Virus record (IMG/VR): IMGVR_UViG_3300046542_000361
Source: a virus
Lineage: Duplodnaviria > Heunggongvirae > Uroviricota > Caudoviricetes
Length of the DNA stretch: 64,000 nucleotides
Reading direction: 5' to 3' (one strand)
The first letter of the stretch is position 1. Each line of letters opens with the position of its first letter. The translations under genes and the position numbers were made by a program. The notes beneath the pieces were generated by a model. The model had not been told where the DNA came from. It searched no databases and saw only the letters and a program-made list of their open reading frames with translations. This document shows positions 1 through 62,146 of the stretch, in pieces.

Positions 1-428
1 ATCGACTTGGCGATCGCGACATTGTGGGCGTTGGCAAGCTTTGCCTGTCCACCGAGCGCCCGGACGAAGTCGACGACCTTGTCGATGGCGTAGATGTTGA
101 AACGGTCGCTGTCGGCCTCCTTGCCCTGGCGATAGTTGATGAACGCCGGCGTGGTCTTCAGCACCATCAGCACACGCGCCATCGAGGGCAGTGCCAGCTT
201 CGAGCGATAGCTGTTCAGCTTCTTCACCTTGGGCATGTCGGCCGAGCCGTTCGCCTTGCGGCTGATCTCGAACTGGACACGCTCGTCGAAGGCGGCTGCA
301 ACCGTCAGCGCGAACGCCTTGGCGTCATCTTCGTTCACTGCCTTCACCGCGTCCTCGAATATGAAGGCCTGCGGTTCGTTGGACTGCTGGCCGGCCGGTG
401 CCTGGACGGACTTGATTTTCTTGGTCAT
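1..428 (-). CDS. hypothetical protein, partial (start codon at 428, 3' end lies beyond the window start)
   Basis: Minus-strand open frame from ATG at 428 (MTKKIKSVQAPAGQQSNEPQAFIFEDAV...) runs to position 1 without a stop. RBS GGAGAC upstream. Not in the ORF track because it has no stop. The track ORF 24..566(+) is its antisense. Confidence 0.55.
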   Translation of the reverse strand, partial: MTKKIKSVQAPAGQQSNEPQAFIFEDAVKAVNEDDAKAFALTVAAAFDERVQFEISRKANGSADMPKVKKLNSYRSKLALPSMARVLMVLKTTPAFINYRQGKEADSDRFNIYAIDKVVDFVRALGGQAKLANAHNVAIAKS

Positions 429-602
429 TGCGATTGTCTCCGTGTTGTTGACGACTTCGAAAGATTGTTCGCTCTTTCGATGAAAACAACATACGACGTT
501 CAAACGCGGCGTAGTATCTGGCGTGGGTTGGCGCAGCACGGCACGAAGCTTCACTCCGGAGTGTAATCCTTGGACACAATCCTGTCACAAGATTCGCCGT
601 CT

Positions 603-657
603 CCCTTCAATATATTAAATAACTAATAGGTATTAATTACTATGAAGGGAGACGGAC
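603..657. promoter_or_regulatory. perfect 13-bp inverted repeat (CCGTCTCCCTTCA ... TGAAGGGAGACGG) enclosing a ~30 nt AT-rich loop
   Basis: Read directly. An isolated AT-rich island in GC-rich DNA, upstream of the 428 gene start. Confidence 0.5.
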
Positions 658-1439
658 CGGATTGCTGACGCGCCGGAATGAAGGATTGCTCCTTTCTAGC
701 CGGGAGCCGCCCGCCATGGACGTTCCGCGGTGATCCGTGGCGTGCCGAGGCAATCCATGGTCAGCCGGTGGGTCAGCCATGGTCCGGTGTTGAGCGGGTC
801 GACGGTGAGTTTCGGTAGCCCATGGCTCCGGCGCTCGTGGTTCCTGGAAATTCCGAAAAGCCAAAAAGAGAGGCAGGTCCGAAAACCCGCCTCGAGGAAG
901 GCCGCTGTCCGTGATGCGACCACGCTGCATGTAATCAACAGCCAGCTGGACAACTGTCTGCTACGCAATTCATTTGCGCGCTTGTGAAGATAGACGCACG
1001 CGATCGGGATGCAAACGGCGCATCGCGGCTACGGGTGGTCTGGTCAAGCGGTTGATGGAGAGGGGTGAGGCGCGGCGCCGGCCAACCATCCTGTCGCTTA
1101 GAATTCCCTATACGCACATCTATCTCCACACACGCATGCGCTTGCTCTCACCTACACCTATAGAAGCTCAGTGGCTCTCTTACGGTGTGATGCGCACCAT
1201 GGTCGTTCTATAGGTCTGTAGTGGGTGATGCTGCTCTCTAGGCCGGTGGTGTGTTCAGTGGTGCGATCGTCTTTTAAGCGTTGCGTTGCCTGCGTTCTGC
1301 TCTGCTGCGCTGGTGTGTGCTCTGTTGTTGACGACGTTTCGCTGTGATGCGTTTCCAGTGTTTGTCTGCTGTCTCGCTGCTCAGAGATTGATGGTTCGAT
1401 TCTGTGCGCTTCTACGAGCTTTTGCAGATGAGTGGTTAT

Positions 1440-1665
1440 CTGCGTGGGTATGTTGACAGTTTGGGAAAAACGCTGAAATCGGGGTTGGCTGTCAACGTAG
1501 CGTTAACTTACGTCAACATCAAAGCCTTGTGAGGATGGTCATTAGACAAAATGGGGTTAAATCCTGTCAACATAGGCAGGGTTGAAACTAGGTGTTTTGG
1601 GGTAGCCGTGTTGACAGAGAGGCTAGCCTGTCAACATCAGGACCATGGCTGTCAATGTCTGCTGT
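1440..1665. repeat. cluster of about 7 TGTCAAC / GTTGACA half-sites in both orientations (iteron- or operator-like)
   Basis: Copies near 1452, 1488, 1513, 1563, 1609, 1629 and 1647. One pair forms the dyad TGTTGACAG-N11-CTGTCAACA. A GT-rich, A-poor stretch at 1200-1440 lies next to it. Confidence 0.55.
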
Positions 1666-1882
1666 GGCTCAGCTGGTCTATGGTGAGCGTGACCAGGCGG
1701 TTCTCTTCCTCCTGGGCCAGCCGGTTGAAGGCGAGCTCCTGGAGTGCCTGGGCTGTCTCAGTGCGGCTCCAGCCGTATTGCTCAGCGAGGAGCAGCACCT
1801 GGTCGAAGGTGGTCTCGAGGGCGGCCTGGCAGTCGAGGTCGCGATCGGCGTAGGGTGCGAGCTGTCTGGGTGCGGTGATCAT
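1652..1882 (-). CDS. hypothetical small protein (76 aa)
   Basis: ATG with strong RBS GGAAGAGGAA. ORF track. Confidence 0.6.
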   Translation of the reverse strand: MITAPRQLAPYADRDLDCQAALETTFDQVLLLAEQYGWSRTETAQALQELAFNRLAQEEENRLVTLTIDQLSHSRH

Positions 1883-1954
1883 GGCCTGTTCCTCTTCCGT
1901 TCATGAGGACATTAGACCTACCGCATAGGTGGAATCTTGTCGAGGTGGTTGTGT

Positions 1955-2311
1955 TCAGTCCTCGATCAGAGCCTTGAGCCACTCCGGATTGAAGCTCAGC
2001 GTCATAGGCTGGCCGTAGAGCGCGCGTGCGGTCTTGCGGCGTAGTTTCTTCCAGAGCCGCTTGGAACGGTGTCTGCTGGGCTTAGGCTGGTCGAAGATGG
2101 TGCCTATGAGCGGCAAGGCGTTGACGTTGGCGCGGCGTTTGACCTGGGTGCAGGTGAGCACCGGTGCCTGGTGCTCTCTAGCCAGGCTGTGCGCGAGCTC
2201 GGCGCGATCGACCCAGTGAATGAAGCTGTCGCGCCTGGCCGGTAGGAAGCGGATCTCGCCGTATTGCTGCGACAGTTCGCGCAGCTCCTTGTGGACGGTC
2301 TCGAGGGTCAT
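1955..2311 (-). CDS. hypothetical protein (118 aa)
   Basis: ATG with RBS AGGAG. ORF track. Confidence 0.6.
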   Translation of the reverse strand: MTLETVHKELRELSQQYGEIRFLPARRDSFIHWVDRAELAHSLAREHQAPVLTCTQVKRRANVNALPLIGTIFDQPKPSRHRSKRLWKKLRRKTARALYGQPMTLSFNPEWLKALIED

Positions 2312-2320
2312 TGCCAGCTC

Positions 2321-2557
2321 CTAGTGCTTGGGCTCGATGAATGAGGGAATGGCGAGGATTGGCCTGGGCGGGTGCTTGCGCATCAGCTCCACCAGGAAGG
2401 TGCCTAGCTCCGGCGAGGCGTCGACGATCAGCGTGCCGCTGTTGTCGGCGATCTTGTGCTGCACGTAGGCCGTGGTTGCATCCTGCACCTCGGCGATCGG
2501 GCCGTAGAAGGTCATGCCGTTGTCGAACTTGACGAAGGCGTAGGTGAGCTTGGGCAT
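2321..2557 (-). CDS. hypothetical protein (about 78 aa; the track ORF is extended to a GTG at 2566)
   Basis: ATG at 2557 overlaps the stop of the upstream small gene (TGATG). Confidence 0.55.
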   Translation of the reverse strand: MPKLTYAFVKFDNGMTFYGPIAEVQDATTAYVQHKIADNSGTLIVDASPELGTFLVELMRKHPPRPILAIPSFIEPKH

Positions 2558-2691
2558 CAGTTCCACTCCCTCTTAGGGTCGTAGCCTCGCTTCTGCTCCT
2601 TCCGCACCTGGTAGCGCTCGTAGTGAACGCCGGTGATGAAGCAGACCGTGCCGACGGCGAGGAAGGCGTAGAGTTCCAGGGAGCCGATCAT
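2557..2691 (-). CDS. small membrane protein, 44 aa (MIGSLELYAFLAVGTVCFITGVHYERYQ...), one TM helix
   Basis: Not in the ORF track (<60 aa). ATG overlaps the stop of the 2688 gene (ATGA); RBS GAGGA; its own stop overlaps the next gene's ATG. Confidence 0.55.
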   Translation of the reverse strand: MIGSLELYAFLAVGTVCFITGVHYERYQVRKEQKRGYDPKREWN

Positions 2692-2948
2692 GACTGGAAG
2701 TCCTCGCTGATCTGCAGAACCATGCCGCCCCAGCCTCTTTGAAGGTCGTAGCGACCAGGCTTGCCGTTCACGAGCGCCTTGGTAAGCGCGGCTTTCGTTT
2801 CTGGATAACCGTCGCCGGTCTTTTTCAGATACGCCAGATCCGGATGCTCCAGAACCTTGTCGAACATCAAGTCGAGGTTAAACGCCTGGGTGGTCGCCAA
2901 GAGGTTCTCAGCGCCGTTCTCGCCGTAGTGGTAGAGGATATAGATCAT
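2688..2948 (-). CDS. hypothetical protein (about 86 aa from MIYILYHYGENG...)
   Basis: Internal ATG at 2948 with RBS GAGGATA is a better start than the track start at 2981. Confidence 0.5.
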   Translation of the reverse strand: MIYILYHYGENGAENLLATTQAFNLDLMFDKVLEHPDLAYLKKTGDGYPETKAALTKALVNGKPGRYDLQRGWGGMVLQISEDFQS

Positions 2949-3010
2949 GCCGCGCTCTCGCTGTTGTCGATGTTCTGTCATAGCAGCGCGAGCTTAGGAT
3001 GAGAATCTGG

Positions 3011-3298
3011 CTATTGCAGGTCGATGAGAGGCAGGGCACCGGTGACAACGCCATCCGTCGCCATGTCGGCTGGCACGCAGAGGATAGCCTTGGCCTGGGC
3101 TTTGAAGTCCTCGGCATTCTCCTCGAGGGCCTGCTTGCATTCAGCCATGGTGTAGACCTTCGACGTGATGAACACCTCGTTCGCCTTGGTGATGGAGACG
3201 GCTCGGGCCGGCGTGTCGTCTGTGACCTTGATATCCGTGGCCTGTGCGCTCGACGCCGCTGCGAGGATAAGGAGAGTGGCTGCGATGATGTGCTTCAT
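3011..3298 (-). CDS. small secreted protein with N-terminal signal peptide (MKHIIAATLLILAAASSAQA)
   Basis: Signal peptide read in the translation. RBS AGAGG. Confidence 0.6.
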   Translation of the reverse strand: MKHIIAATLLILAAASSAQATDIKVTDDTPARAVSITKANEVFITSKVYTMAECKQALEENAEDFKAQAKAILCVPADMATDGVVTGALPLIDLQ

Positions 3299-3362
3299 GA
3301 TGACCTCTGATTGATTCCGAGATCAAATAGAGCCCGAGCCATGGGCGTGCAAGAAAAAGAAA

Positions 3363-3385
3363 TGGCGCCCGAAGGCGCCACTGTT
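3363..3385 (-). terminator. rho-independent terminator (TGGCGCC cgaa GGCGCCA followed by TTTCTTTTTCTT on the minus strand)
   Basis: Stem-loop plus U-tract immediately after the tail fiber gene stop. Confidence 0.7.
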
Positions 3386-3388
3386 TGA

Positions 3389-6300
3389 TTAGGCGGTGAC
3401 CGTCACCGTCATCACGGTGTCGACGATATCGAAGCCTCGTTTCTGGCGCACCTTGATGCTGAAGGTCTGGTTGACGGTGAGCACACCTGCTCCGCGGATC
3501 AGATCGCCGTTGCTGTTCATCGCCACGCTCGTGCCGGTGTAGGGATCGTAAGCGCGGGAGGTGTTCAGCAGCGACCTGGTCTCGCCAGTGATCTGATCCG
3601 GGAAGTTGACGACGACGCCGGTCTCGGCGACGGCCAGCGACAGGTTCACCGCGGTCGGCAGGGCCGGCAGGGGCGTTGCAAGCGCACCCGTCCGCAGCAC
3701 CTCGCTCGAGGTGGCATAGCTTGCATCGTAAGCCAGCGCCGTCACCGTCTTCGTAACGCCTGCCTCGGTGAAGGTCAGGTGGATACGATCGACACGGCTG
3801 ACCAGGCAGCCCTGATCGGCGTCAGTGATCGTGTAGCTCGACGCGGTCGCACCATCGATCCATTCACAGAGCCAGCCAAGATGCACACCCGTCCAGTTAG
3901 CCCACTGGACCGCAGGCTTGTGCCGGCGCCACTGGTAGGAGCGGGTGATGACCGCGGTCGGGAAGGCCGTAAGCACAGCCGCAGCGTCGAAGCCGCTGTC
4001 GGGGCCGGACAGAACCGCGCCAGACACACGGCTGCCGGTGATCTGCGCGCGTGCAACGACCTTGGGCGGCTCAGCGATGCTGCCGTTATAGGTGAAGTGG
4101 CTGTCCCAGATGAACGCCTGGATCTCACCACCGGCCGGCAGCGTCGTCAGCGTCCGGTCGAGCGGCTTGGTGACGTTGTGGAAGACGAAGCCACGGAAGC
4201 GGCCGGACGTCGGCCGGTCGACACGCACGCCGTTGGCGCACTTGATGACCGTCTCGTCATGCGCCACGATATCGACGCGGCCGGACTTGGTGCCGGTGTA
4301 GCCCGTCACCGAGATACCGGTGAACGACAGCGCCCGGTTCATGTCATACCAGGAATTGTCGTAGAGCTGATGGTTGTGCGATCCCGGCTGGTTGTCGTAG
4401 CCACCGATGCCGTAGCCGAACGAATAGCTGTTCTTGCGCGAGTAGCGGCTGACGTTACGGCAGAAGACCTGGTTGTCACCCTCGTCGGTGCCATGGACGA
4501 AGTTATTCCCATCCAGGATGTTATCGTGGATCAGGATGTAATCGTGCATGTTGGTGACGAGGCAGCCCTTGCCGGACGAGGTCTTGATCGAGTGCATGTC
4601 CAGGAAGGTGCCTCGCATGAGGTAGCCCTTCTGGTGCGGCCCAGGCGAGCCGTCACTGGCATTGCGGTCGGCACGGGTCTGGATCGTGTCGCCTTCAGCC
4701 GTCATAACCGGACGGAAAAGGCAGTCCTCGATCGTGATCTTATCATTGGTGTCGGAATAGAGCCCGTCGGACATGACCTGGAGCAGCGACACGCGCCGCA
4801 GCGTGATGCCGTTGTTCCTGTAGAAATAGATGCCGGACGCGTTTTCCGACGACCCGACGGGATTGAAGCCCGCCTGGTCGATCACAACGTCCTCAATGAC
4901 CCAGTTGGCGCCTTGACGAGCCATGATGGCGCGGTCACCCGAGGTGATGCGCATCTTGGAGATCTTGACGTTGCTGCGGCCGAGCGAGCCATCGTCGGTG
5001 TAATGGTCGATGGCGTAGCTGACGCTGGTCGAACCAATCGCGGTCAGGTCAGCGCCGAGGCCCTCGTAGTTGCGGTTGCTGCCGACCTTCAGCCGGGTGC
5101 CGAACACGCCGCTCAGAACCGCCGTGGCGCCCGACGGAATGGTGTCGGTGCCGACCAGTGTCTGCTTGGCGAACTCAGCGGTCAGGCCGTCATTGCCGTC
5201 GTTGCCGGTGGCGGGGTTCCAGAAGGCTGCCGCAGGCAGCACGACCTTGCCGGCCGTCGTGATCGAGGTCGAGTTGATGGCGTTGGTCGCGGTGACGCGG
5301 CAGGCGATCGTATGGCCTTCCTGAGCCGAGGTCGGCTTGTAGCTCATCAGCGTGGCGCCGGCGATGTCCACGCCGTTGTCGGTCCACTGAACCGTGTAGC
5401 CGGTCGGCTGGTTGGCCCAGGCGCCGAGATCGATCTGCCAGGTGGTGTTGGAGCGATCGGAAGACGCGACGATGGTCGGCGCCGTGGTATTGGCCGGTGT
5501 GACCGACTGGACAGCTGCTGCCGCAAGCGTGATCTCGTTCGAATAGGCGACGACGTCGTTGTTGCGGTTGGAGAAGGTGCGGGCGAGCCGAACCTTCTTC
5601 GTCGCCATGTCGGCGCGGGTCGTGAACACCGACAGCGTCTTCTGGAGATCCTGCACGTTGCCAATCGGCAGGGTGGCATAGGAGAGACCACCGCGAGCAT
5701 CCCACTGGTAGCTGTTTGCACCAGCGGCCGAGATATTGCGTGCCTGCTGCCGGAAGACCAGCCAGTCGCCATCGAGCCACTCGCCGAAGTCATGCGTGAG
5801 CGTCCAGTGCGAGGTGGCGTTGGTCGTAACGCCGAGCTCGCCGAGCTCGGTGCCGGCCGTCACGCCGACCTTCGGCATCTGCACTTCCTCAATCAGAACA
5901 CCACCACGGTATTTGGCCGCATACATCCTGATGCGGATCGAGGAGTTGGTGTTGAGGTGGCGCATGAACAGGTCGTAGACCTGCGCGCCCTCGTTCCCAC
6001 CGGCCGCGCCGATCTGGGTGGCGATATAGTCGTTCTCAGTAGCGCTCGCGGCGACGGAGAAGCTATAGGTGTTGGTGCCACCGTATGCGGCCGTCGAAAG
6101 CCCGACGCCGTGATGATTGTTGCCATCAGGATAGCCCGTCGGCGCAGCGACGGCGGTAGCGGCTGCCAGATAGCGTGTGAGCGGAGCCTTCAGCGCCGGG
6201 ATTTTCGCCTGGTCGATCTGCCACTCGTCGGACTTGATGATGGCATTTTCGCTTGCAGCGCCCGACGAGGTCACGGTCATGCGGCTACCAGGCTCGGTGC

Positions 6301-9991: not shown

Positions 9992-10217
9992 TGTCGCTCT
10001 CCCTTAGTCTGTGTTTGCGCTTGCCGGCAACGCGCTTCTCGCGGCGCCTGGTGTTCGGGTGCCGGCCGTCCCGGTTAGCGCCGTCGAAGCCGTGGGCGCT
10101 CTCACGCCGCGGCATTTCGCAGAAATATGGCTCGAGATCACCGAGGCCGCGCCAGGTGCGCTCCATCGGCTGCGGACCTCGGGCGTGCCAATCGACCGTG
10201 CGGCGGGTGCGGCTCAC
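9960..10217 (-). CDS. Arg-rich small protein (GTG start, coupled to the upstream stop)
   Basis: GTGA overlap with the 10214 gene. The composition is unusual for this genome. Confidence 0.3.
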   Translation of the reverse strand: MSRTRRTVDWHARGPQPMERTWRGLGDLEPYFCEMPRRESAHGFDGANRDGRHPNTRRREKRVAGKRKHRLRESDSDHLYEHGPL

Positions 10218-15125: not shown

Positions 15126-15577
15126 CAATAATCCTCGGCGTAGAAGATGGTGAGCACGCGATGCGTCACCTTGGGATCGGCCGGATTCTCCGACAGGTTC
15201 TCCATCGCGAGGTCGTAATAGTCGATCTTCCACATGTAGCTCTGCCCATCGATCTCGAAAGAGCCGAAGTCGTGCTCGCCGTATGGATCGTCCTTCGCAT
15301 CGAACGCGGCGTAGTTCTTTACCTGCTCGACAGCCTTGACGATCTCGTCAGCTTCTGCGTTCGCCAGACCGCCTGCGATAAAGATCTCGCCGCTGGCCTC
15401 AAGCCGGCGCAACTTGTCGTTCAGAGCGCGGACGTCCGACGTCCATTCGTCGAGCTGGGCGACGACCCAGTCGTTGTAGGAGAGATAGCTCGGAAGCAGC
15501 AGCCCGTCGGTCTTGACGAGGGCGCGCCATTTCTCATAGGTGAAGCGGTCGTGCTGGTTAGATGCGGTCCAGGTCAT
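15125..15577 (-). CDS. hypothetical protein
   Basis: RBS GAGGGA. Confidence 0.55.
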   Translation of the reverse strand: MTWTASNQHDRFTYEKWRALVKTDGLLLPSYLSYNDWVVAQLDEWTSDVRALNDKLRRLEASGEIFIAGGLANAEADEIVKAVEQVKNYAAFDAKDDPYGEHDFGSFEIDGQSYMWKIDYYDLAMENLSENPADPKVTHRVLTIFYAEDY

Positions 15578-22408: not shown

Positions 22409-23203
22409 TCACGCGCCGGCCGCAGGTGCCGGCTGGGCGAAGATTTCGCGCAGGCGCTTGGCGACGGTCGAGTTCTCGTTGAACACCAGGGTGTTCTTCT
22501 GGCGCGTGGCGATCTTCGTCGCTTCGAAGAGCGTCATCACCTGGCCCGACTGCGATTGCGCCGTGCCCTGCTTGTAGCTCGCCTTGAACATCGTCGTGAT
22601 GTCCGTGCCGGTGATCGTCTTCTTGTCGTCCAGCAGCTTGAAGGCTGCCTTGACGTAGACCGACGGCTGCTTGCCGGCGTGCAGAGCGGCGAAGAGATTT
22701 TCGAACTTCTCGGCGATCTTCTTCTGGCTCGGCAGGGCAGCCATCACAGCCGTCTTGTTCGCGGCGAGGGCGTCATCGTCCATCGTCGACGCATCGCCTT
22801 CGAGCACGAAGACCTTCGCATCGAGCGAGGCCATGTCGCGCGGCGTGCGCGGGGTGGAAGCTGCACGCGGCGCGCGGGGCGTTGCGGCCGACTGACTGCG
22901 GGCGGCAGCAGCTGCTTCGGAAGGCTTTTCGGCGACGTCCGTTTCGCTCGTCTGTTCGGCATAGCCGTCTTCACGGTCGAGGGACATTTCGAGGTCGTCG
23001 ACGTTGACGTTTTCGAGATCCTCTTCCGTCACGGTCGAGCCGTTGTCGTCGGCTGCCGAGGTTTCGACGATCTCTTCGATTTCATCGGAGATCTCATCGC
23101 CGGCAAGGCCGTCGAGCTCCAGATCGTCGAGCAGGTCGTCAAGAGCGGCTGCAGTCGAGCCGGCGAGGGTTACGTTAGAGGTCGATGCGAGCAACTTTGC
23201 CAT
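22409..23203 (-). CDS. hypothetical protein with a highly acidic N-terminal half (about 264 aa from MAKLLASTS)
   Basis: ATG at 23203 with strong RBS AAAGGAGACA. Long D/E-rich segment (…DDLLDDLELDGLAGDEISDEIEEIVETSAADD…). Confidence 0.55.
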   Translation of the reverse strand: MAKLLASTSNVTLAGSTAAALDDLLDDLELDGLAGDEISDEIEEIVETSAADDNGSTVTEEDLENVNVDDLEMSLDREDGYAEQTSETDVAEKPSEAAAAARSQSAATPRAPRAASTPRTPRDMASLDAKVFVLEGDASTMDDDALAANKTAVMAALPSQKKIAEKFENLFAALHAGKQPSVYVKAAFKLLDDKKTITGTDITTMFKASYKQGTAQSQSGQVMTLFEATKIATRQKNTLVFNENSTVAKRLREIFAQPAPAAGA

Positions 23204-50737: not shown

Positions 50738-53700
50738 TCAGTCGAGGAGATCGATGACTGACGCAAAGACGTCCTCCATCAGTTCCTGCTTCTCGGGCGA
50801 GTAGTAGATTTCGCCAGGGTTGAAGCCGATCACCAGGTTAGCATCGAGCTCCTTGTGATAGACGATCTTGCCGGCCGCCTCAGAGGTCTTGCCCTTAAAG
50901 TCAGGCAGGAAGTGCCGGACGACGGTCGTGCCGAGCAGCACGATGATGGGCGGCCGCAGGACATCGATTTCGCGCTCGAGGTAGGGCAGATACAGCCGGA
51001 CCTCGTCCGACGAAATCTGCTTGCCCGCCTTCGGCCGTTTGAGCAGCGCCGTCCAATAGAAGGACTTGCGGTCGAGTTGATGGTTCATCAGCGCATCGAT
51101 GACCGGCGCCGAGGCTTTGCCGATCGACATCATGCCTTCCTGCTCTTCCGGATTGTTGGGCGCGTCCGTGATGATCATGAACTGCGCCTGTTTGCCGAAA
51201 TGCGGCTGCACCATGATGCCATCTTCCGACAGGTCCGCCTTGTAGTCGTCGATCACCTCGGCGATCGCTTCCTTGGTCGCCTTGTCGTTCTCCATCGATC
51301 GAGGCACCGGCACGGTTGCCGTCACCAGGCCGGGCAGGAGCTCGAGCTGATCCTTGATACGGCTCGGGTCGTTCGGGCCGACCTGTCCAGGTTCGATGCG
51401 TGAGAACGCGCCGACGAGATCGAGGTTTTCCTGATGCCGCTTGTTGCACCTGGTCTTGTTGACGCGCGCTAGGAAGTCGGCCTTGTTCTGGAAGGGACCG
51501 ACCGGCTTGCCTGTCTTCTCGTCGACCGCGGTGCGGGCGGCAAGGATCGCGCTCGTCGTCGTGCCCGAGATCCCCTTGATGCGCTGGAACGGCATGACCA
51601 TTCGGACATCGGTGACGATCTCGAAACGCTCGGTCGAAATGTTGATATCGGGCATGTTCACGTCGATGCCGAAGCGACCTGCATCGCGCAGCAGCGCCGG
51701 CAGCTTGTCCTCGTCCATCTGCGTTAGCGCGGCTGCGAAGAACTCGACCGGATAGTGCGTCTTCAGCCACATCGACTGCCAGGAGATCAGCGAATATTCG
51801 ACCGAGTGGCTCTTGTTGAAGCCGTAGCCGGCGAAGCCTTCGATCTTGTCGAAAAGCGTGCCTGCCCATTCCTCGGTGCAGCCGATCGTCTTGACCGCAC
51901 CGTCGCAGAACTTGCCGCGCTCCTTTTTCATTTCCTCGGGCAATTTCTTACCCATGATCTTACGCAGCTTGTCAGCGTCGGCGCCGGAATATCCGCAGAT
52001 CACCTGCGAGATCTTCATAACCTGCTCCTGGTAGACGATGACGCCGTATGTATCGCGCAGCACGTCTTCCATCAGCGGGTGGTCGTAATCGACGCTCTCG
52101 TTACCCTGCTTGCGTCGATAGTAGCTATCCATCATGCCTGATTCCATCGGGCCTGGTCGGTAGAGCGCGGTCGCCGCGGTGATATCGTCGAAGGTGATGG
52201 TGCCGTCGGCGCCGAGCTCGCGCAGCAGCTTGCGCATGCCAGCGCTTTCGAACTGGAAGACGCCTGTGGTCAAACCTGCGGCGAAGTTCTTCAGCACCGC
52301 CTGGTCGTCGAGCGGCACCTTCATCAGATTGATCTTCTTGGCGTGGCGCTCGAAGATATAGCGCAGCACAAGCGCGATCAGGTCGAGCGTGGACAGGCCG
52401 AGGATATCGAGCTTGACCAGGCCTTGATCCTCGACGATGCGCTTGTCCCAGCAGACGACGGCGCTGTCGCCTTTACGGCGCTCGATGACGGCGCGCTCCT
52501 CGAGATCGACACCGCCGACGACGATGCCGGACGCGTGCTGGCTCATATTGCGGATCGTGCCTTCGATGCGCTCCATGATATCCCAGTGGCCGGGATACTT
52601 GCCGGCGAACTCATCGATCTCGCCGACTTCCTCGCGGCACACCGGCAGTTTCACGTTGGCGCCGTGTTTCTTCGGCACCAGTTTGGAGATCGAATATTCC
52701 TTCTCCGGGATATCGAAGGCGCGGCCGACATCGCGGATCGAGGACGCAGCAGCAAGCGTGCCGAAGTTCGACACACCGGCGACGCGCTTCTCGCCGAATT
52801 TCTGGATGAGATAATCGACGACCTCGTGCCGGCGCGTCGACATGAAGTCAAGGTCGGCGTCGGGAAGGTCAAGACGCTCTGGATTGATGAAGCGCTCAAA
52901 GAGCAGGCCGAAGCGGATCGGGTCGCAGTCTGTGATGCCCATCAGATAAGCGACAAGCGAGCCACCAACCGAACCTCGACCAGGGCCGACGAGAATGCCG
53001 TTTGACTTGGCGAAGCGGACGACGTCCTGGGCCAGCAGGAAGTAACCCGCGAAGGACAGCTTCTTCAGCACCTCGAGCTCGTAGACCAGGCGCGGCTTAT
53101 AGAGGTCGACCAAGTCTTGCGGCTCCGGCTTGTGCCCGAAGCTCTCCTGGCTGAAACGGTTCTTCCAGCCGAGCTTGCATTCCTCGACCAGCTTGGCAAA
53201 CTCGTCCGGCGCCATCACCGGCAGCGAGACGGGTGCTTTCGACCAGGTGTATTCGACCGCATCGACCAGCCAGTCGGTGTTTGCCAGACCTTGCTTAAAG
53301 TGAGCGCCGGCGCCAGTGACACCGCGCAGCGCGACGTGCTTTGCAGCCTTGACCACTTCGGCGCCAAGGTCGCTCGCCTTCAGGACATGGAAGTCTCTGT
53401 TCCAGTTCGACTTGTGCCAGCCCTCGGAGATCTTGTTGCCGTTGGCGATCGCCGACATGATCTCGTGGGCGTCAGCCTGGTCGGCCTCGTAATAGGCGGG
53501 GCGCACGACCAGCGGGCGAGCCTTGAAGCGCGCGATCAGATCCAGCGAGCGCTTGTTGAGCGCGCCGAAATACGGCGTATCGACTGGGATCAGCGGTGCG
53601 AACACGTAGTCAGGATGCAGGTAGTCGACGAGCTTGGCGCAGATCGCTTCTGCGTCGGCGCGCATGATGACGCCGTGCGTGTCGCCGAGGTGAACAGCCA

Positions 53701-56919: not shown

Positions 56920-59442
56920 TCATTTCATGAGGATCTTCTTCAGTTCGCCCATCACGGCGCGCGGCAGGTCGTCGACCGACTGCAGGACAATGTGGTTGTC
57001 GTAGAAGCGCGCGACGGCGTCGGACTCGATGCCGATACCGACGAGATCGTAGCCCATGTTGGTCAGACGCTCGACCATGTGCTTCAGGTGCGCGTCGTCA
57101 TTTCTGGCGCCGGCAGGAAAGCCGTCGGACAGGACGATGATGACCTTGCGCTTCTCCTTGCGCCGCGCCAGGCGCATTGCTGCGTATTCGAGGGACTCGC
57201 CGTCGATATTGCCGCCCATATAAGGCTGATGCTTGCGCTGGTAAGCGAAGCGCTTCTTGACGTCGGCGTTAAGCCGCTCGTTGAAATCTTTGAAGATCGG
57301 CATGTAGATCGGCACGACGCGCGAGAAGGCAACGTTGGATTTGTTCGTCTCGGTCTGAAGGTCGTTGTTGAACTGCCTGATCCTATCTTCCGTCATGACG
57401 CTGCCTTGGCCCCACATCTGCGCGGTCGTAAAGCCCATGCATTCGGAGGGGATATTGCAGCGCTCGAGCACCGAGGCGAGCGCGTAAGAGGCCGACAGCG
57501 CCGTTGCCATTGGTCGCCCCTGCATCGAGCCGGAGCAGTCCGACAGCAGCGACACAGCCGTGTCTTTCGCGCGGATCTCTTCACGGCGCGAGAACACGCG
57601 CGAATCGCCGGCCGTCAGCCGATGCAGACCGGCGCTGTTCAAGCGGCCAGAGCGTTGACCGGCGACATTGAAGACGCGCGCCTGGGCGGCCATCATGCGC
57701 TCGATATCCTTCTGCATCACGCCAGTCAGCGCGCGGGTCTGCTCCTCGAGCTCGACGATATAGCGGCTTTTGAAATCTTCCGGCACCTCGAGCGGCTTGA
57801 TCACGTCGTATTCACGGGTGAAGATCGAATAATCCGAGGCCCTGCAGGCCGAGATCGCTTCCTTGACGATGATCTTGACCAGCGCCGACGAGATATCCTT
57901 TTCGTCGAGCGCGTCATCATCCATTGCGGCAAAGGGGTTCTGGTTCGGATCGTAGCCGATGGAAGCGACGTCGATCGCCGGCTCCTCATCTTCACTGGCC
58001 GAGCCGTCGTTTGCGTCTTCATCGTCGCCGGCGTCCTCGACAGCGACATTGCTCAGAGGCTCGCCAGACTCCTCATCGCCGTCTTCACCTTCTTCGGATT
58101 CACCATCGGGATCAGAGCCTCCAGCGTCGCTTTCGCTCTCGTCACCCTCAGCGTCCACATCTTCGTCGGCATCGTCAGCGGGCTCCCCGGAGCTGTTCTG
58201 CTCGGCGTCCTTGCCTTCATCAACCTCAGAAGCATCCGATGCTTCGTCGCCGTCAGCAGCAGAGCCGTCACCCCCTTCCTCGCTTCCGCCATCAGCATCA
58301 TCGGGCGCGCTGCCGGAACCATCTTGATCATCGGCATCGTCAGCGTCGTCCTCTTCGGCCGAGCCGGCGCCTTTGCTTTCCTCGGGCTCATTGCCAGCGT
58401 CGGCATCGTCCTTGTCGCCGGAACCGTCACCTGCGTCTTCGTCGGCCGTTTGATCACCATCCTGATCGTCGTCGCCGTCGTCTGCGCTTCCAGCGCCAGG
58501 TTCCTTGTCGCTTTCCTCATCGTCGGCTTTTTCTTCGCCTTCGCCGGAACCTTCGTTCTCACCGTCGCCGGCATCGTCTTCCTTCTCCTCTTCGTCGCTT
58601 TCGCCTTCGCCGCCCGACGCTTTGTCGTTGTCTTCGGTGTGCTCGCGCTCACCGTCGCCTTCACCGTCGCCGGTCTGCTGTTCGTCGGAATGATCCTTGT
58701 CGTCTTCGCCTTCGGACGGCTCCTGGTCGTCGGAGCCTTCGCCCTGGTCCTGATCGTCTTGCTCTTCAGGCTCGGGCGGCTGCGGCGGGGCGGGCGGCGG
58801 TGGCGGGTAGAGAATGGCTTCGACCTCGACCGCAATGTCGTAGGTCTGCTCGGTCGTCTGGAGCAACGGCATCTTGTCTTGCGACGCCTTTGAGAAGCGC
58901 TGCATGAATGGCTTGACCAGCTCGTGCTCCCAGTAATTGTTGTCGTCCATGAATTCCTGGAATTCGACGTGGCCGGCAAGCGCGCGCATCATGACGACGA
59001 TCAGATAGCCGAACTCTTCTTCCTTCGAGTGCGCCTTTGCGATCGCGGCCGCGGTGACGTTGCGCAGGAAGTATTCACGCAGCTTGGAAATGTTGCGCTT
59101 CGAGCCGGGGAACTCATTGCTCATCAGCCGCTCGATCATCGTATCTTCGATGATATTGTGCAGATTGTGCAGGCGCTTCGACTTGTCGCGCGCCTTGAAC
59201 AGGAAGTCGGTGAAGAGGACATGCGCGACTTCATGGTCGATGAAGCCCTGGATCGCGAAGACAAACTCCGGCTCGGCATTGTCGGGCAGGAGAGGAATGT
59301 TGACGCGCCAGGGCAGACCGGTGACGGGGTGCGGTTGAACATAGGCTTGCGTGCCCATTTGCGTCACGGTCAGGCCTTTGCCAGCAAGCATCGGCACGAT
59401 CTTCTTGATCGCTTCGCGCAGGATCACGATGTCTTTGTTCAT
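56920..59442 (-). CDS. CobT-like vWA-domain protein with a ~250-aa poly-acidic low-complexity linker and an N-terminal HExxH (HEVAH) motif
   Basis: C-terminal vWA MIDAS LLSDCSGSMQG. Extreme D/E/G/S-rich repeat region. 840 aa. Confidence 0.7.
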   Translation of the reverse strand: MNKDIVILREAIKKIVPMLAGKGLTVTQMGTQAYVQPHPVTGLPWRVNIPLLPDNAEPEFVFAIQGFIDHEVAHVLFTDFLFKARDKSKRLHNLHNIIEDTMIERLMSNEFPGSKRNISKLREYFLRNVTAAAIAKAHSKEEEFGYLIVVMMRALAGHVEFQEFMDDNNYWEHELVKPFMQRFSKASQDKMPLLQTTEQTYDIAVEVEAILYPPPPPAPPQPPEPEEQDDQDQGEGSDDQEPSEGEDDKDHSDEQQTGDGEGDGEREHTEDNDKASGGEGESDEEEKEDDAGDGENEGSGEGEEKADDEESDKEPGAGSADDGDDDQDGDQTADEDAGDGSGDKDDADAGNEPEESKGAGSAEEDDADDADDQDGSGSAPDDADGGSEEGGDGSAADGDEASDASEVDEGKDAEQNSSGEPADDADEDVDAEGDESESDAGGSDPDGESEEGEDGDEESGEPLSNVAVEDAGDDEDANDGSASEDEEPAIDVASIGYDPNQNPFAAMDDDALDEKDISSALVKIIVKEAISACRASDYSIFTREYDVIKPLEVPEDFKSRYIVELEEQTRALTGVMQKDIERMMAAQARVFNVAGQRSGRLNSAGLHRLTAGDSRVFSRREEIRAKDTAVSLLSDCSGSMQGRPMATALSASYALASVLERCNIPSECMGFTTAQMWGQGSVMTEDRIRQFNNDLQTETNKSNVAFSRVVPIYMPIFKDFNERLNADVKKRFAYQRKHQPYMGGNIDGESLEYAAMRLARRKEKRKVIIVLSDGFPAGARNDDAHLKHMVERLTNMGYDLVGIGIESDAVARFYDNHIVLQSVDDLPRAVMGELKKILMK

Positions 59443-59484: not shown

Positions 59485-59715
59485 TCAAAAATCTTGGATC
59501 ACAAACGGGAAGAGCAGGAGCCCTTGTCCGACTGCAGGGATGATGATGTGGATATTGCCGTGTTCGGGGTGCGTGCCGGTGAAGACGGTCACGCCCTCCT
59601 TGTCCGTTCGCACGCAATTCACCAATGACGCGCCCTCTGCCCAGGCAAGGTCGAAAGGAATCTCCTTGACGGCGCCGAGGTGGGTCTTGGTGGTTGCCTG
59701 CTGTTGCTTCTGCAT
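59485..59715 (-). CDS. hypothetical small protein
   Basis: Motif copies lie at 59455-59483 and 59745-59764. Confidence 0.45.
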   Translation of the reverse strand: MQKQQQATTKTHLGAVKEIPFDLAWAEGASLVNCVRTDKEGVTVFTGTHPEHGNIHIIIPAVGQGLLLFPFVIQDF

Positions 59716-59781
59716 GATGCGTCCTTTGTCATGTCAACACCGATCAGTCAATATTTACTGATGGAGCTAGAGAAAGAAAAA

Positions 59782-59807
59782 GCGATCCGGGGCCTATTCC
59801 GGATCGC
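59782..59807 (-). terminator. rho-independent terminator GCGATCCGG-N8-CCGGATCGC followed by TTTTTCTTTCT on the minus strand
   Basis: Immediately after the regulator gene stop. Confidence 0.65.
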
Positions 59808-59833
59808 GGTGGCTATAAGCCGGGTCGCCCCGG

Positions 59834-60238
59834 TTATTTCGCGAAGGCCTCGGTGACGGCAGCGCGCTGCCGGTCGTTGATCTTCGGATCGCTGTTGCCG
59901 GAAGCCTCGCGGACAATACCGAGGATTTCGACTTCGTTTTCAGTGCAGATGAATTCCAGCATCCTCGCGGTTGTCTCGTCCTCGGGCATGAACTGCTCGA
60001 GCGCCATCCGGAAGAGGAACATCGGATCCACGCCGATCGCACGGGCGAGCGGAACGACGCGGTCAAGCGGCAGCTTGGCGTCGCCCTTCTTGATCATCGT
60101 AACCATGTTCGACTGGGTCCAGCCGGCCGCCTGGGCGATTTCGCGGTGGGATCGGTTGACCACTTGGTCGATATGCTTGTCGAGAAAACGCGCAACCTTC
60201 GTGTTAGCGTAGGGGCGAACGTAAGTTGTAGTGGACAT
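59834..60238 (-). CDS. XRE-family helix-turn-helix transcriptional regulator (repressor-like)
   Basis: HTH …SHREIAQAAGWTQSNMVTMIKKG… Strong RBS AAGGAAGAAGGG. Upstream of it is the AT-rich region. Confidence 0.65.
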   Translation of the reverse strand: MSTTTYVRPYANTKVARFLDKHIDQVVNRSHREIAQAAGWTQSNMVTMIKKGDAKLPLDRVVPLARAIGVDPMFLFRMALEQFMPEDETTARMLEFICTENEVEILGIVREASGNSDPKINDRQRAAVTEAFAK

Positions 60239-60239
60239 T

Positions 60240-60600
60240 TAATAATAACCCTTCTTCCTTGACCTTTGTTTTACTTGTCACTAACAGCGTTTTCTTGTTT
60301 TCTGCTTTAGTGAATAGCGCATCGGTCTTGGGGTGCAACGATTTCTTTTGGCAAAATTTAGGGCAGTAAGTCAATACCGATTTACCCACAAAATGCAGTC
60401 AATTCCATTTTGCCGCACCGAAACGCAAGGAATCGCGGGGGAAACGGTGCGAAAAGAAATTTTTCAAGTGGTGATTTTTAGGGAGTTGACGCGAGTTCCA
60501 TAAGGTCTGTTATGCGACTTTTACGGGCTTGGCTGAAAACTGTAACCAAGGATAGATTTTTCTTGGGGTTTTATCCCACTACCGAATCGTGGCATCGCTG
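60240..60600. promoter_or_regulatory. AT-rich origin-like region with inverted repeats (GGCAAAAT…ATTTTGCC; CGCACCG…CGGTGCG) and a DnaA-box-like TTTACCCACA
   Basis: The lowest-GC stretch of the window, between the divergent regulator gene and the RHH / Rep genes. Confidence 0.45.
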
Positions 60601-60605
60601 GTAAT

Positions 60606-60842
60606 ATGACGCTGGTTCGAAGTGAGTCTCTAGCCATGAACGTTGAAACAAATGCTAACGCGCGTGCCGCAACCAAGTATCGGGAGAAGCGAGAGGCGGC
60701 CGGCGAGCGCCAGGTCACCGTTTGGCTTGCTCCCTGTGCGCAGTTGAAGGTCGACGAAATGATGTCAGCCGGTGGGTTTAAGAACCGGTCGGATTTGATC
60801 GCCCGCGCGATCCAGGAATTTGAATTGAACAAAGGAAACTAA
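60606..60842 (+). CDS. ribbon-helix-helix (CopG-like) DNA-binding protein
   Basis: …KYREKREAAGERQVTVWL… is typical of RHH plasmid/phage regulators. ATG at 60606 or 60636. Confidence 0.5.
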   Translation: MTLVRSESLAMNVETNANARAATKYREKREAAGERQVTVWLAPCAQLKVDEMMSAGGFKNRSDLIARAIQEFELNKGN

Positions 60843-61011
60843 ACTCGGCAAAGCAAAAGGCCCCAGGACGCCAATCCCAGAGCCTTTTTATTCTAAGCGA
60901 CTACGGATCGCCTCGTTTTGACACCTTGGTTATCCCGAATCATCGCTCGATTGTCAACATTTCTTTCGGGAGTGTTCGGCGAAGCTTTGCCCTTGGATAC
61001 AAGGGAAACCA

Positions 61012-62118
61012 ATGGGAGCGCAGTCATCCGGCTGGCGTGGATTAAGTCCGACACTTTCGGTCGGCCAAGATCTCGACAGCGCCGAAAAGCAAGACCTCTT
61101 CGACACGGCCAGAATGGCAGCTCGAGTCCTTGGGTTGCCGCCGACGGCGCGGTTCGTCCTCGACCAGCTCTGCGGCGTTTATAACGGCGAACCGATCGAA
61201 GGTCGAATCCTTGTCTGGCCGTCAAACGAGTTCATCGGCGAGCGCACTGGCATTCCGGAGCGGTCCATCAGGTTCGCGCTCGCCCGTCTGATCGAGGAGG
61301 GCGTGATCATCTCCAAGGATTCGCCGAACGGCAAGCGGTTTGCGCAGCGCTCGCCATCCGGCCAGATCATCCGTGCCTTCGGTTTCGACCTCTCCCCTCT
61401 CCTTGCGCGCCGGCCGGAGTTTGTCGCCAGGCTCGCGGCGCTCAAGGAATTGGAGCGTGAGCGGAGCGTTGCCTTCGACGAGCTGGTCATTCACCGGCGT
61501 TCGGCCCAGGAAGCTCTCAGGACGCTTGCAGAGGTTTACCCGAGCGTCGACATAGCTGATCTGACGGCGCGCGCCCTGGAGCTCATGCGCGTCACACCGC
61601 GCAGGTCCGGTGCGGGATCAGCCGACCCTTTCCGCGGGCAGTGGCAAGCACTCAGAGAAGAGGCAGAATCCAGATATTATACCGCCTCTGCCGGCAATAA
61701 CTGCCGTCACAAAGACAGCAACAAATATGCCCCTGACCAGTCTTGTGACAACGGCTCTGAAGATGTGCAGGAGGCGCCGGCGCAGCGGACGGATCTGCGC
61801 GACCTGAAGATGGCTTGCCTTGATGCGATGGAATTCATGGGTGAGATCCGGCACGACCTCGAGCTTGTCGCGGCTGCCGGGCGAATGCGGGGCTCGTTCG
61901 GCGTGTCAGTGTCGGCCTGGGAGGAGGCCAGGCGCGAAATCGGCCCGGTGCCGGCTGCCGCGACCCTGGTGTGGGTCATCCAGATGCAGGCGCGGCCAGC
62001 TGCCGGCGCCGAGCAGATCAAGAATTTCGGTGGTTACTTCCGGGCGATGTGCCGGTTGGTCCGCGACGGCCGCGTCAACCTCGATGAAGAGATCCAAAAG
62101 CTCAGGCGACGACAATAA
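61012..62118 (+). CDS. replication initiator-like protein with winged HTH (RepC / RP-C-like, putative)
   Basis: wHTH SNEFIGERTGIPERSIRFALARLIEEGVI. 368 aa. RBS AAGGGAAA. One of only three plus-strand genes. Confidence 0.45.
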   Translation: MGAQSSGWRGLSPTLSVGQDLDSAEKQDLFDTARMAARVLGLPPTARFVLDQLCGVYNGEPIEGRILVWPSNEFIGERTGIPERSIRFALARLIEEGVIISKDSPNGKRFAQRSPSGQIIRAFGFDLSPLLARRPEFVARLAALKELERERSVAFDELVIHRRSAQEALRTLAEVYPSVDIADLTARALELMRVTPRRSGAGSADPFRGQWQALREEAESRYYTASAGNNCRHKDSNKYAPDQSCDNGSEDVQEAPAQRTDLRDLKMACLDAMEFMGEIRHDLELVAAAGRMRGSFGVSVSAWEEARREIGPVPAAATLVWVIQMQARPAAGAEQIKNFGGYFRAMCRLVRDGRVNLDEEIQKLRRRQ

Positions 62119-62146
62119 AAAAAAGGGCAGCCCGCGAGAGCTGCCC
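62117..62146 (-). terminator. rho-independent terminator (GGGCAGC tctcgcg GCTGCCC followed by TTTTTTTT on the minus strand)
   Basis: Stops the minus-strand ligase operon before it collides with the plus-strand rep gene. Confidence 0.7.

Follow-up and report, generated by a model that had tools for sequence, protein, structure and literature searches.

A conserved non-coding regulatory and RNA locus tied to a new winged-helix protein gene in RHEph10-type phage-plasmids

Introduction

Why would a family of phage-plasmids keep more than a kilobase of DNA in which no protein is encoded? The question is raised by a gene-free stretch of 1.2 kb between positions 428 and 1652 of a 64,000-nucleotide piece of viral DNA (Caudoviricetes; IMG/VR record IMGVR_UViG_3300046542_000361), the whole of which is referred to here as the window. 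The stretch is flanked on one side by a gene for a protein of 76 amino acids (aa; 1652-1882) and on the other by the start of a gene designated here gene X (428->1). An earlier reading of the letters by themselves, termed the sequence-only reading, had described a hairpin with an AT-rich loop, a G+T-rich tract and a cluster of short repeats in the stretch, and had offered three roles for it: a replication origin or iteron array, a pac site for the small terminase subunit, or an operator array. Our conclusion, held with high confidence, is that the stretch is linked to gene X as a non-coding locus for regulation and for an RNA. There is direct support for its non-coding status and its linkage to gene X, for the structure and strand of an RNA and the terminator that ends it, for the enrichment, phasing and co-variation of its repeat arrays, and for the winged-helix fold of the gene X protein.

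The window originates from a RHEph10-type Rhizobium phage-plasmid, its first 4 kb being 76-82% identical at the DNA level to RHEph10 (115 kb), RHph_Y2_11 (Y2_11), N1_15 and N1_10. RHEph10 and the Sinorhizobium plasmid pLM21S1 are related plasmid-like prophages that use RepC-type replication and ParA partition (PMC4447125, PMC7969092). On the map of Y2_11 nearly all genes point one way, and the equivalent direction in the window is the minus strand, hereafter the gene strand.

Results

The stretch is conserved, non-coding and inherited with gene X

A gene-free stretch of 1.2-1.5 kb is located immediately upstream of gene X in all of the relatives found, which comprise six phages, the Pararhizobium plasmid p5, the B1VFA/pLM21S1 clade, the Methylobacterium plasmid pAMS5a, contigs of 115-117 kb from Rhizobium, Ensifer and one further bacterial genome assembly, and contigs from read assemblies and metagenomes. 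The sequence-only reading had recommended an alignment with related phages as a check, and the stretch proved to be conserved and alignable end to end with 15 relatives. In pairwise comparisons with five of these, 53 of the 67 indel runs break the frame (they are not multiples of 3) and the mismatches have no 3-base periodicity, and in a comparison of all six reading frames with relatives every frame was equally "conserved". These three results rule out a protein-coding gene, and the earlier statement that there is no convincing open reading frame (ORF) between 428 and 1652 therefore holds. The ORFs annotated as gp141 in RHEph10 and EVC19_009 in Y2_11 are interrupted in the window, and N1_15 has no annotation for them. 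Because frames are broken, periodicity is absent and the six frames are alike, gp141, EVC19_009 and some automatic calls in assembly contigs are spurious, and no conserved coding gene, which the sequence-only reading had named as the finding to look for against it, is recovered in the homologs. Hence the 1.2-kb gene-free stretch is real, conserved and non-coding.

The 371-kb conjugative plasmids of Agrobacterium vitis retain the stretch and a truncated gene X next to an upstream gene that is unrelated to the 76-aa gene of the window, and thus the inherited unit is the stretch plus gene X. The plasmid copy suggests that the module may be able to move and to function outside a phage. On these plasmids the entire non-coding locus and the truncated gene X (positions 2264-4066 of the compared pieces) are found beside a Doc toxin gene and IS30. 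In a relative from a Rhizobium azibense assembly (116.6-kb contig, also in IMG/VR) an extra ORF of ~390 nt is present between the 76-aa gene and the GTTGAC repeat array described below, which places the beginning of the conserved block at that array.

A covarying RNA ends in an intrinsic terminator

In 13 sequences the gene-strand RNA corresponding to 993->837 forms four helices, of which the last is an intrinsic terminator. The proposed partners pair in 90% of cells, compared to 36-52% when they are slid against each other, 15 of the 29 pairs are altered on both sides in a compensatory manner, and none of 500 shuffles reached the observed covariation values. The strand is also indicated, as 90% of cells pair on the gene strand versus 75% on the opposite one, with 67 G-U versus 13 A-C cells. 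The terminator consists of a GC-rich hairpin followed immediately by a U-run, and its stem (helix 4) is maintained by compensatory change, with four pairs changed on both sides, 88.5% of cells paired and G-U changes that suit the gene strand only. It is one of five stringent gene-strand terminators in the 64 kb, the nearest other one being at 3361.

Between helices 2 and 3 there is a conserved stretch, UGUUGAUUACAUGCAGCGU (UGUUGAUYRCAURCAGCGU), that is unpaired except for its first four bases, which belong to the 3' side of helix 2. A promoter-like site with a TTG-type -35 box, a 16-nt spacer and the hexamer CTATCT is situated 8-9 nt ahead of helix 1, and its position is kept in most of the 15 sequences; CTATCT is close to CTATAT, the -10 consensus of Rhizobiales. 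This site suggests that a discrete RNA of ~125 nt may be made, and the structured RNA could alternatively be the 3' end of an upstream operon transcript. The covariance models of Rfam 15, including that of the c4 antisense RNA, gave nothing in positions 1-4000 of the window at E<=1 but one chance match (at 3326), while a covariance model built from the RNA itself finds one copy per genome and only within this clade. Base-pairing between the RNA loop and GUCAACA in the leader of gene X was considered and rejected, since it would involve just 7-8 bp and there is no co-variation.

Two phased repeat arrays change with lineage

Downstream of the terminator on the gene strand is an array of palindromic CCNNGG hexamers that the sequence-only reading had not recorded. 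With seven per 200 nt, compared to a mean of 1.07, this is the densest region of the 64 kb, and 14 of 15 relatives share the spacing of 10, 10, 10 and 11. There is free variation at the central bases, and the units within one genome are not mutually complementary, so that they are sites in double-stranded DNA rather than RNA helices. A plus-strand RNA at 660-860, hinted at by G-U pairs in CCRTGG hairpins, was discarded because the 10-bp array provides the better explanation. The 27-mer CAGGAACCACGAGCGCCGGAGCCATGG that follows the terminator is invariant among the six close relatives, as well as in the copies from A. vitis and R. lentis. It has diverged in farther members of the clade, and a related CGGAATTT..AGGAAC is retained even in B1VFA and Methylobacterium. 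The GGAAC after the terminator was tried as the -35 box of an extracytoplasmic function (ECF) promoter and rejected, as no -10 box is conserved with it and the motif occurs just once in the genome. Exact 21-mers of the 27-mer block in metagenomes proved to be chance matches inside unrelated GC-rich coding DNA.

The second array is at the other end of the stretch, where the sequence-only reading had placed a cluster of TGTCAAC/GTTGACA half-sites at 1440-1665. The cluster is genuine: the 10-mer ATGTTGACAG has seven sites with two or fewer mismatches at 1450-1658, the only three exact matches to it in the 64 kb belong to this cluster, TGTCAAC has eight exact copies in the window, of which five fall in 1452-1635, and GTTGAC sites cluster nowhere else in the window. 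One detail required correction, as the dyad described earlier with an 11-nt spacer has a spacer of 10 nt (1618-1627). The core of the array consists of the direct hexamers GTTGAC-N4-GTTAAC-N5-GTTGAC (1519->1489) at a spacing of 10-11 bp, flanked by inverted copies. The part kept in 15 sequences comprises site 4, TTTTGTCTAATGACCATC, the three direct hexamers and an inverted copy ~40 bp further on. In the B1VFA/pLM21S1 clade the corresponding sites read CCTTTACA / TGTAAAG, and in Methylobacterium there are about ten copies of the ATGTCCCATGG type. All copies of the array switch together between lineages, which suggests a trans factor specific to each lineage, the simplest candidate being a DNA-binding protein, and the joint change of repeat motifs and inverted-repeat arms points to recognition by proteins. 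Site 4 was rejected as the -35 box of a promoter with TCTAAT as its -10 box, because the spacing is not conserved.

Between this array and the RNA is the tract of 1200-1440 that had been described as G+T-rich and A-poor. This too is borne out by its plus-strand composition (A 10%, T 38%, G 32%, C 20%; window mean for A 18.2 +/- 3.0%). On the gene strand it is U-poor, at 8-10% U in nearly all relatives, with dispersed TAGAG/TATAG motifs just downstream. It was considered as a Rho-loading site and rejected, as Methylobacterium does not share its surplus of C over G.

An inverted repeat with an AT-rich core recurs at module boundaries

The hairpin that had been placed at 603-657 does contain a perfect 13-bp inverted repeat around an AT-rich core, but its coordinates needed revision (arms 597-609 and 643-655; core of 33 nt). 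It has a fold z-score of -5 to -6, and the pairing of its arms survives one, three and four double changes in three lineages; Methylobacterium has wholly different arms of 23 bp. A -10-like hexamer (TATATT, TATAAT, TACATA or TATATA) is present at the gene-side arm in every sequence compared, and in the window TATATT (614->609) abuts that arm. The element occurs three times in the Y2_11 genome, each time at a boundary between gene modules. The strand asymmetry of its pairing is weak (141 versus 136 paired cells), so that a role at the level of DNA is equally possible. A leaderless micro-ORF starting in the gene-side arm was ruled out, as its start codon is not conserved.

Gene X encodes a new winged-helix protein

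The gene X protein has an N-terminal helical domain and a C-terminal, ArsR-like winged-helix domain. It has no sequence matches in Pfam, PHROG, NCBIfam or the PDB, and its fold matches only generic winged helices, with TubR among the structural matches; against BFVD the matches are uncharacterized proteins only, and no match to the families or folds of Rep, lambda O or RepE was found. In A. vitis the gene X protein comprises the N-terminal 143 aa only (70% identical) and is missing the winged-helix domain. This truncated protein is recorded on 25 contigs. The positions of all of the features are collected in Table 1.

Table 1. Features of the locus and related elements; coordinates refer to the window except where stated
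Feature	Position	Strand	Remarks
Gene X, 5' part	1..428	minus	232 aa when complete; only gene constantly linked to the non-coding stretch
Gene X 5' leader	429..596	minus	conserved; hairpin just before the ribosome-binding site
Leader Shine-Dalgarno GGAG	441->438	minus	
Leader GUCAACA	452->446	minus	
Leader hairpin TCGAAAG/CTTTCGA	480->457	minus	
Leader invariant block GTGACAGGATTGTGTCC	588->572	minus	
Perfect 13-bp inverted repeat	597-609 / 643-655		33-nt core 610-642, ~85% A+T
CCNNGG palindromic hexamers	714, 725, 735, 745, 755; in phase 777, 820		spacing 11, 10, 10, 10
27-mer CAGGAACCACGAGCGCCGGAGCCATGG	820..846	minus	directly after terminator T-run; unique in genome
Intrinsic terminator	855..893	minus	10-bp stem 893->870, loop UUCG, then UCUUUUUGGCUUUUC
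RNA helices 1-3	979->963, 962->937, 921->900	minus	covarying
Conserved 19-nt stretch UGUUGAUUACAUGCAGCGU	about 940->922	minus	between helices 2 and 3
Candidate RNA promoter	988..1015	minus	putative; TTTGCA (1015->1010), 16-nt spacer, CTATCT (993->988)
Conserved blocks GGCGCCGCGCC and GCGTGTGTGGAGATAGA	1079->1069, 1135->1119	minus	
U-poor tract	1200..1440	minus	about 9-10% U on gene strand; conserved islands
GTTGAC-type repeat array	1450..1658	both orientations	seven sites; site 7 overlaps stop codon of the 76-aa gene
Conserved block TTTTGTCTAATGACCATC	1551->1534	minus	inside GTTGAC array
AT-core element, second copy	Y2_11 22867-22960		just before late (terminase) operon
AT-core element, third copy	Y2_11 52007-52081		right arm overlaps annotated A1 start codon
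Unsupported gene calls in the stretch	RHEph10 gp141 3570-4133; EVC19_009 4342-4860 (positions in compared pieces)		from comparative analysis
Unsupported automatic gene calls	1792-2298 and 1790-2308		in two compared bacterial genome-assembly/read-assembly contigs; from comparative analysis

Neighboring features

A strong intrinsic terminator at 3340-3389 (T-run at 3361, minus strand) directly follows a gene for a 1294-aa, tail-fibre-like protein with a pectin-lyase fold, and the small genes at 3298-1652 are thus a unit of their own, leading into the locus. A distant relative has, on the strand opposite gene X and ~2.3 kb upstream of it, a Peptidase_S24 (LexA/CI-type) gene. A 240-nt stretch at ~58470-58810, with 5% A on the plus strand, is more extreme in composition than that at 1200-1440 and is probably within a coding region. 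There are no tRNA genes in the window.

The region 59500-62120 contains the RepC gene (61012-62118, plus strand; PF03428, PF11800), the lowest-GC DNA, two DnaA-like boxes (59547, 60382) and three intrinsic terminators beside RepC, together with a conserved promoter-like TTGACA-N17-GATAAC at 60958 on the minus strand, near RepC. It is likely to be the plasmid origin region. Repeats of TTAGCG / CGCTAA that resemble KorB operators are present in Y2_11 at 15300-15360, upstream of a parA-parG-like operon, and again at about 10040-10070, between EVC19_012 and EVC19_013; these are probable partition or regulatory sites.

Discussion

How might these parts work together? On the gene strand their order is GTTGAC array, U-poor spacer or leader, RNA of ~125-155 nt with terminator, CCNNGG array, AT-rich core and leader. 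Of the three roles offered by the sequence-only reading, the operator or regulatory array fits best, based on the helical phasing, the change of motifs with lineage and the link to a winged-helix gene. That reading had nevertheless overlooked the RNA, its terminator and the CCNNGG array, as well as the three copies of the hairpin per genome and the constant link to the downstream gene. The wiring that we infer, with both of its promoters, its pairing of proteins with arrays and its regulatory logic, is that of a composite transcription-control locus in which operator arrays would act upstream of gene X together with a small or leader RNA that ends in a terminator and with a promoter set between the arms of an inverted repeat, and we see about an even chance that it is right. 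The terminator would halt transcription arriving from the upstream operon of small genes and so insulate gene X. The terminated RNA would probably also be made from its own TTTGCA-N16-CTATCT promoter and be released as a small RNA, and transcription of gene X would start in the AT-rich core. Lineage-specific DNA-binding proteins, acting cooperatively on the two phased arrays and the inverted repeat, would set access to this promoter and would also gate whatever starts in the GTTGAC array. Gene X itself is most likely the binder, which would amount to autoregulation.

Several observations do not sit easily with such wiring. Both promoters match their consensus weakly, the distance from GTTGAC site 4 to TCTAAT varies among relatives, and ~1 kb separates the GTTGAC array from the promoter of gene X. 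Both arrays are retained in the copy from A. vitis although gene X there is without the winged-helix domain. The RNA covariance model gives no matches in distant clades, and a search of the phage genome found no conserved complementary target of the RNA loop. The inverted repeat and its core may alternatively serve in RNA processing or in the unwinding of DNA, and the scheme does not account for the U-poor tract, the 27-mer CAGGAACCACGAGCGCCGGAGCCATGG, which is invariant only in the closer copies, or the RNA loop.

The replication origin is the next reading to be weighed, and we regard it as unlikely. Here the locus would serve as a lytic or secondary origin, with the phased repeats as iterons, gene X as the initiator and the AT-rich core between its GC-rich arms as the unwinding element, and initiation would be activated or primed by transcription or by the terminated RNA, as at lambda ori and T4 oriF/oriG. 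Since a helicase, a primase and Pol III alpha are encoded by the phage itself, it needs a lytic origin somewhere. The locus has a DNA-binding gene adjacent to it, the helically phased arrays adjoin an AT-rich core of 33-45 bp in a genome of 60% GC, in Y2_11 the GTTGAC array belongs to the windows of lower GC, and the architecture is kept while the motifs co-vary with lineage. An origin fits the succession of arrays, AT-rich core and palindrome, but repeats of iteron length, a Rep-type initiator and DnaA boxes were not found. The repeats are of 6-10 bp and of mixed orientation instead of iterons of 17-22 bp, and Tandem Repeats Finder (TRF) detected no tandem repeats in the locus. Gene X shows no match to Rep, lambda O or RepE, either by family or by fold, and despite the AT-rich core at 610-642 there is no DnaA box (<=1 mismatch) in 400-1700. 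RepC, the lowest-GC DNA of Y2_11 and DnaA-like boxes lie elsewhere (59.5-62.1 kb), GC skew is uninformative, and the AT-core element is present three times, at module boundaries. Moreover, an origin alone does not explain an intrinsic terminator and the covariation of an RNA.

The RNA is instead central to a second and still less likely proposal, an immunity or incompatibility cassette by analogy with P1 c4, P4 CI and N15 CA. The terminated small RNA would control an incoming relative or the operon of gene X, acting either in trans or through its own leader, and the A. vitis plasmids would carry their copy as a decoy. The elements are phage-plasmids (PMC4447125, PMC7969092), and the RNA is built like a small RNA, with helices on its 5' side, 19 conserved nt that are left unpaired and a terminator whose hairpin leads into a U-tail. 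The cassette is retained in the 371-kb A. vitis plasmids with a truncated gene X. Against this, Rfam gives no match, c4 included, a conserved target complementary to the RNA was looked for in the phage and not found, and changes in the loop are not accompanied by matching changes in the leader of gene X. A more speculative version, to which we attach little weight, draws on the two proposals in that the stretch and gene X would be a portable module of a new kind, either an RNA-dependent lytic origin with a new winged-helix initiator or a captured exclusion cassette. If the latter were true, the RNA and decoy sites would have been captured by large Agrobacterium plasmids for use against incoming phage-plasmids.

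Tandem phased arrays upstream of a small winged-helix gene, with TubR among the structural matches, are also what would be expected of a partition centromere bound by a TubR-, ParR- or ParG-like adaptor. We nevertheless consider this very improbable, as there is no motor gene beside gene X, and ParA and a ParG-like ribbon-helix-helix protein are encoded ~6.5 kb away (14.4-15.3 kb in Y2_11) with their own TTAGCG repeats. The pac site that the sequence-only reading had also offered is the least credible role, the clustering of the hexamers in two groups, reminiscent of P1 pac, being outweighed by a terminase gene ~16 kb distant (23.7 kb, compared to 6.9-8.1 kb for the locus in Y2_11), the retention of the locus in A. 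vitis plasmids that are not phages, and the absence of any record or contig end at the locus. A type III toxin-antitoxin system (ToxIN-like) was rejected, as there are no tandem repeats and gene X encodes a winged-helix protein.

Phage-plasmids of the RHEph10-like and pLM21S1-like types are widespread in rhizobia and methylobacteria, nothing is yet known about how they are regulated, and this locus is the largest conserved non-coding element of their genomes. It offers several handles on that regulation, including a new RNA supported by covariation together with its terminator, phased arrays that switch with lineage, a multicopy promoter or hairpin element and a new winged-helix protein, and spurious gene calls in deposited genomes are corrected.

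Comparison with known systems

How does the locus relate to systems that are already understood? Comparable in setting are the P1 immI c4, P4 CI and N15 CA RNAs, which likewise are structured, terminated non-coding RNAs of phage-plasmids upstream of possible targets. They differ in that there is no similarity in sequence or in Rfam, neither processing sites nor complementary targets were identified here, and the locus is far longer and carries two repeat arrays in addition. The size of the RNA (~125 nt), its 5' stem-loops, the conserved single-stranded stretch and the GC hairpin with a U-tail are those of Hfq-type trans-acting small RNAs, whereas the promoter here is putative and the RNA could equally be the 3' end of an upstream operon.

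The arrays have counterparts in TubR-tubC, ParR-parC, the omega heptads and the MetJ metboxes, where short units spaced by helical turns are also found upstream of an operon for a small winged-helix protein and the motif also changes with lineage. Unlike these systems, the locus has no partner motor gene, its CCNNGG unit is of 6 bp with a free center, and the unrelated GTTGAC array is located 700 bp away. Lambda ori, iteron plasmids and the P4 ori/crr sites similarly combine repeats with a neighboring AT-rich stretch, a palindrome and an adjacent DNA-binding gene, but in the present case the units are short and of mixed orientation, there is neither an initiator of a Rep family nor a DnaA box, and a terminator and RNA structure are interposed between the arrays. 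The long imperfect hairpins at module boundaries in a genome transcribed in one direction resemble the intercistronic RNase III hairpins of the T7 type, from which they are distinguished by an AT-rich core of 33-45 nt with -10-like boxes.

No report of a fixed combination of these parts across a phage-plasmid family was found in the literature searched. The parts themselves are of known kinds, namely an RNA that ends in a terminator, operator arrays in helical phase and a promoter lying between the arms of an inverted repeat, and none of them belongs to a family that has been described.

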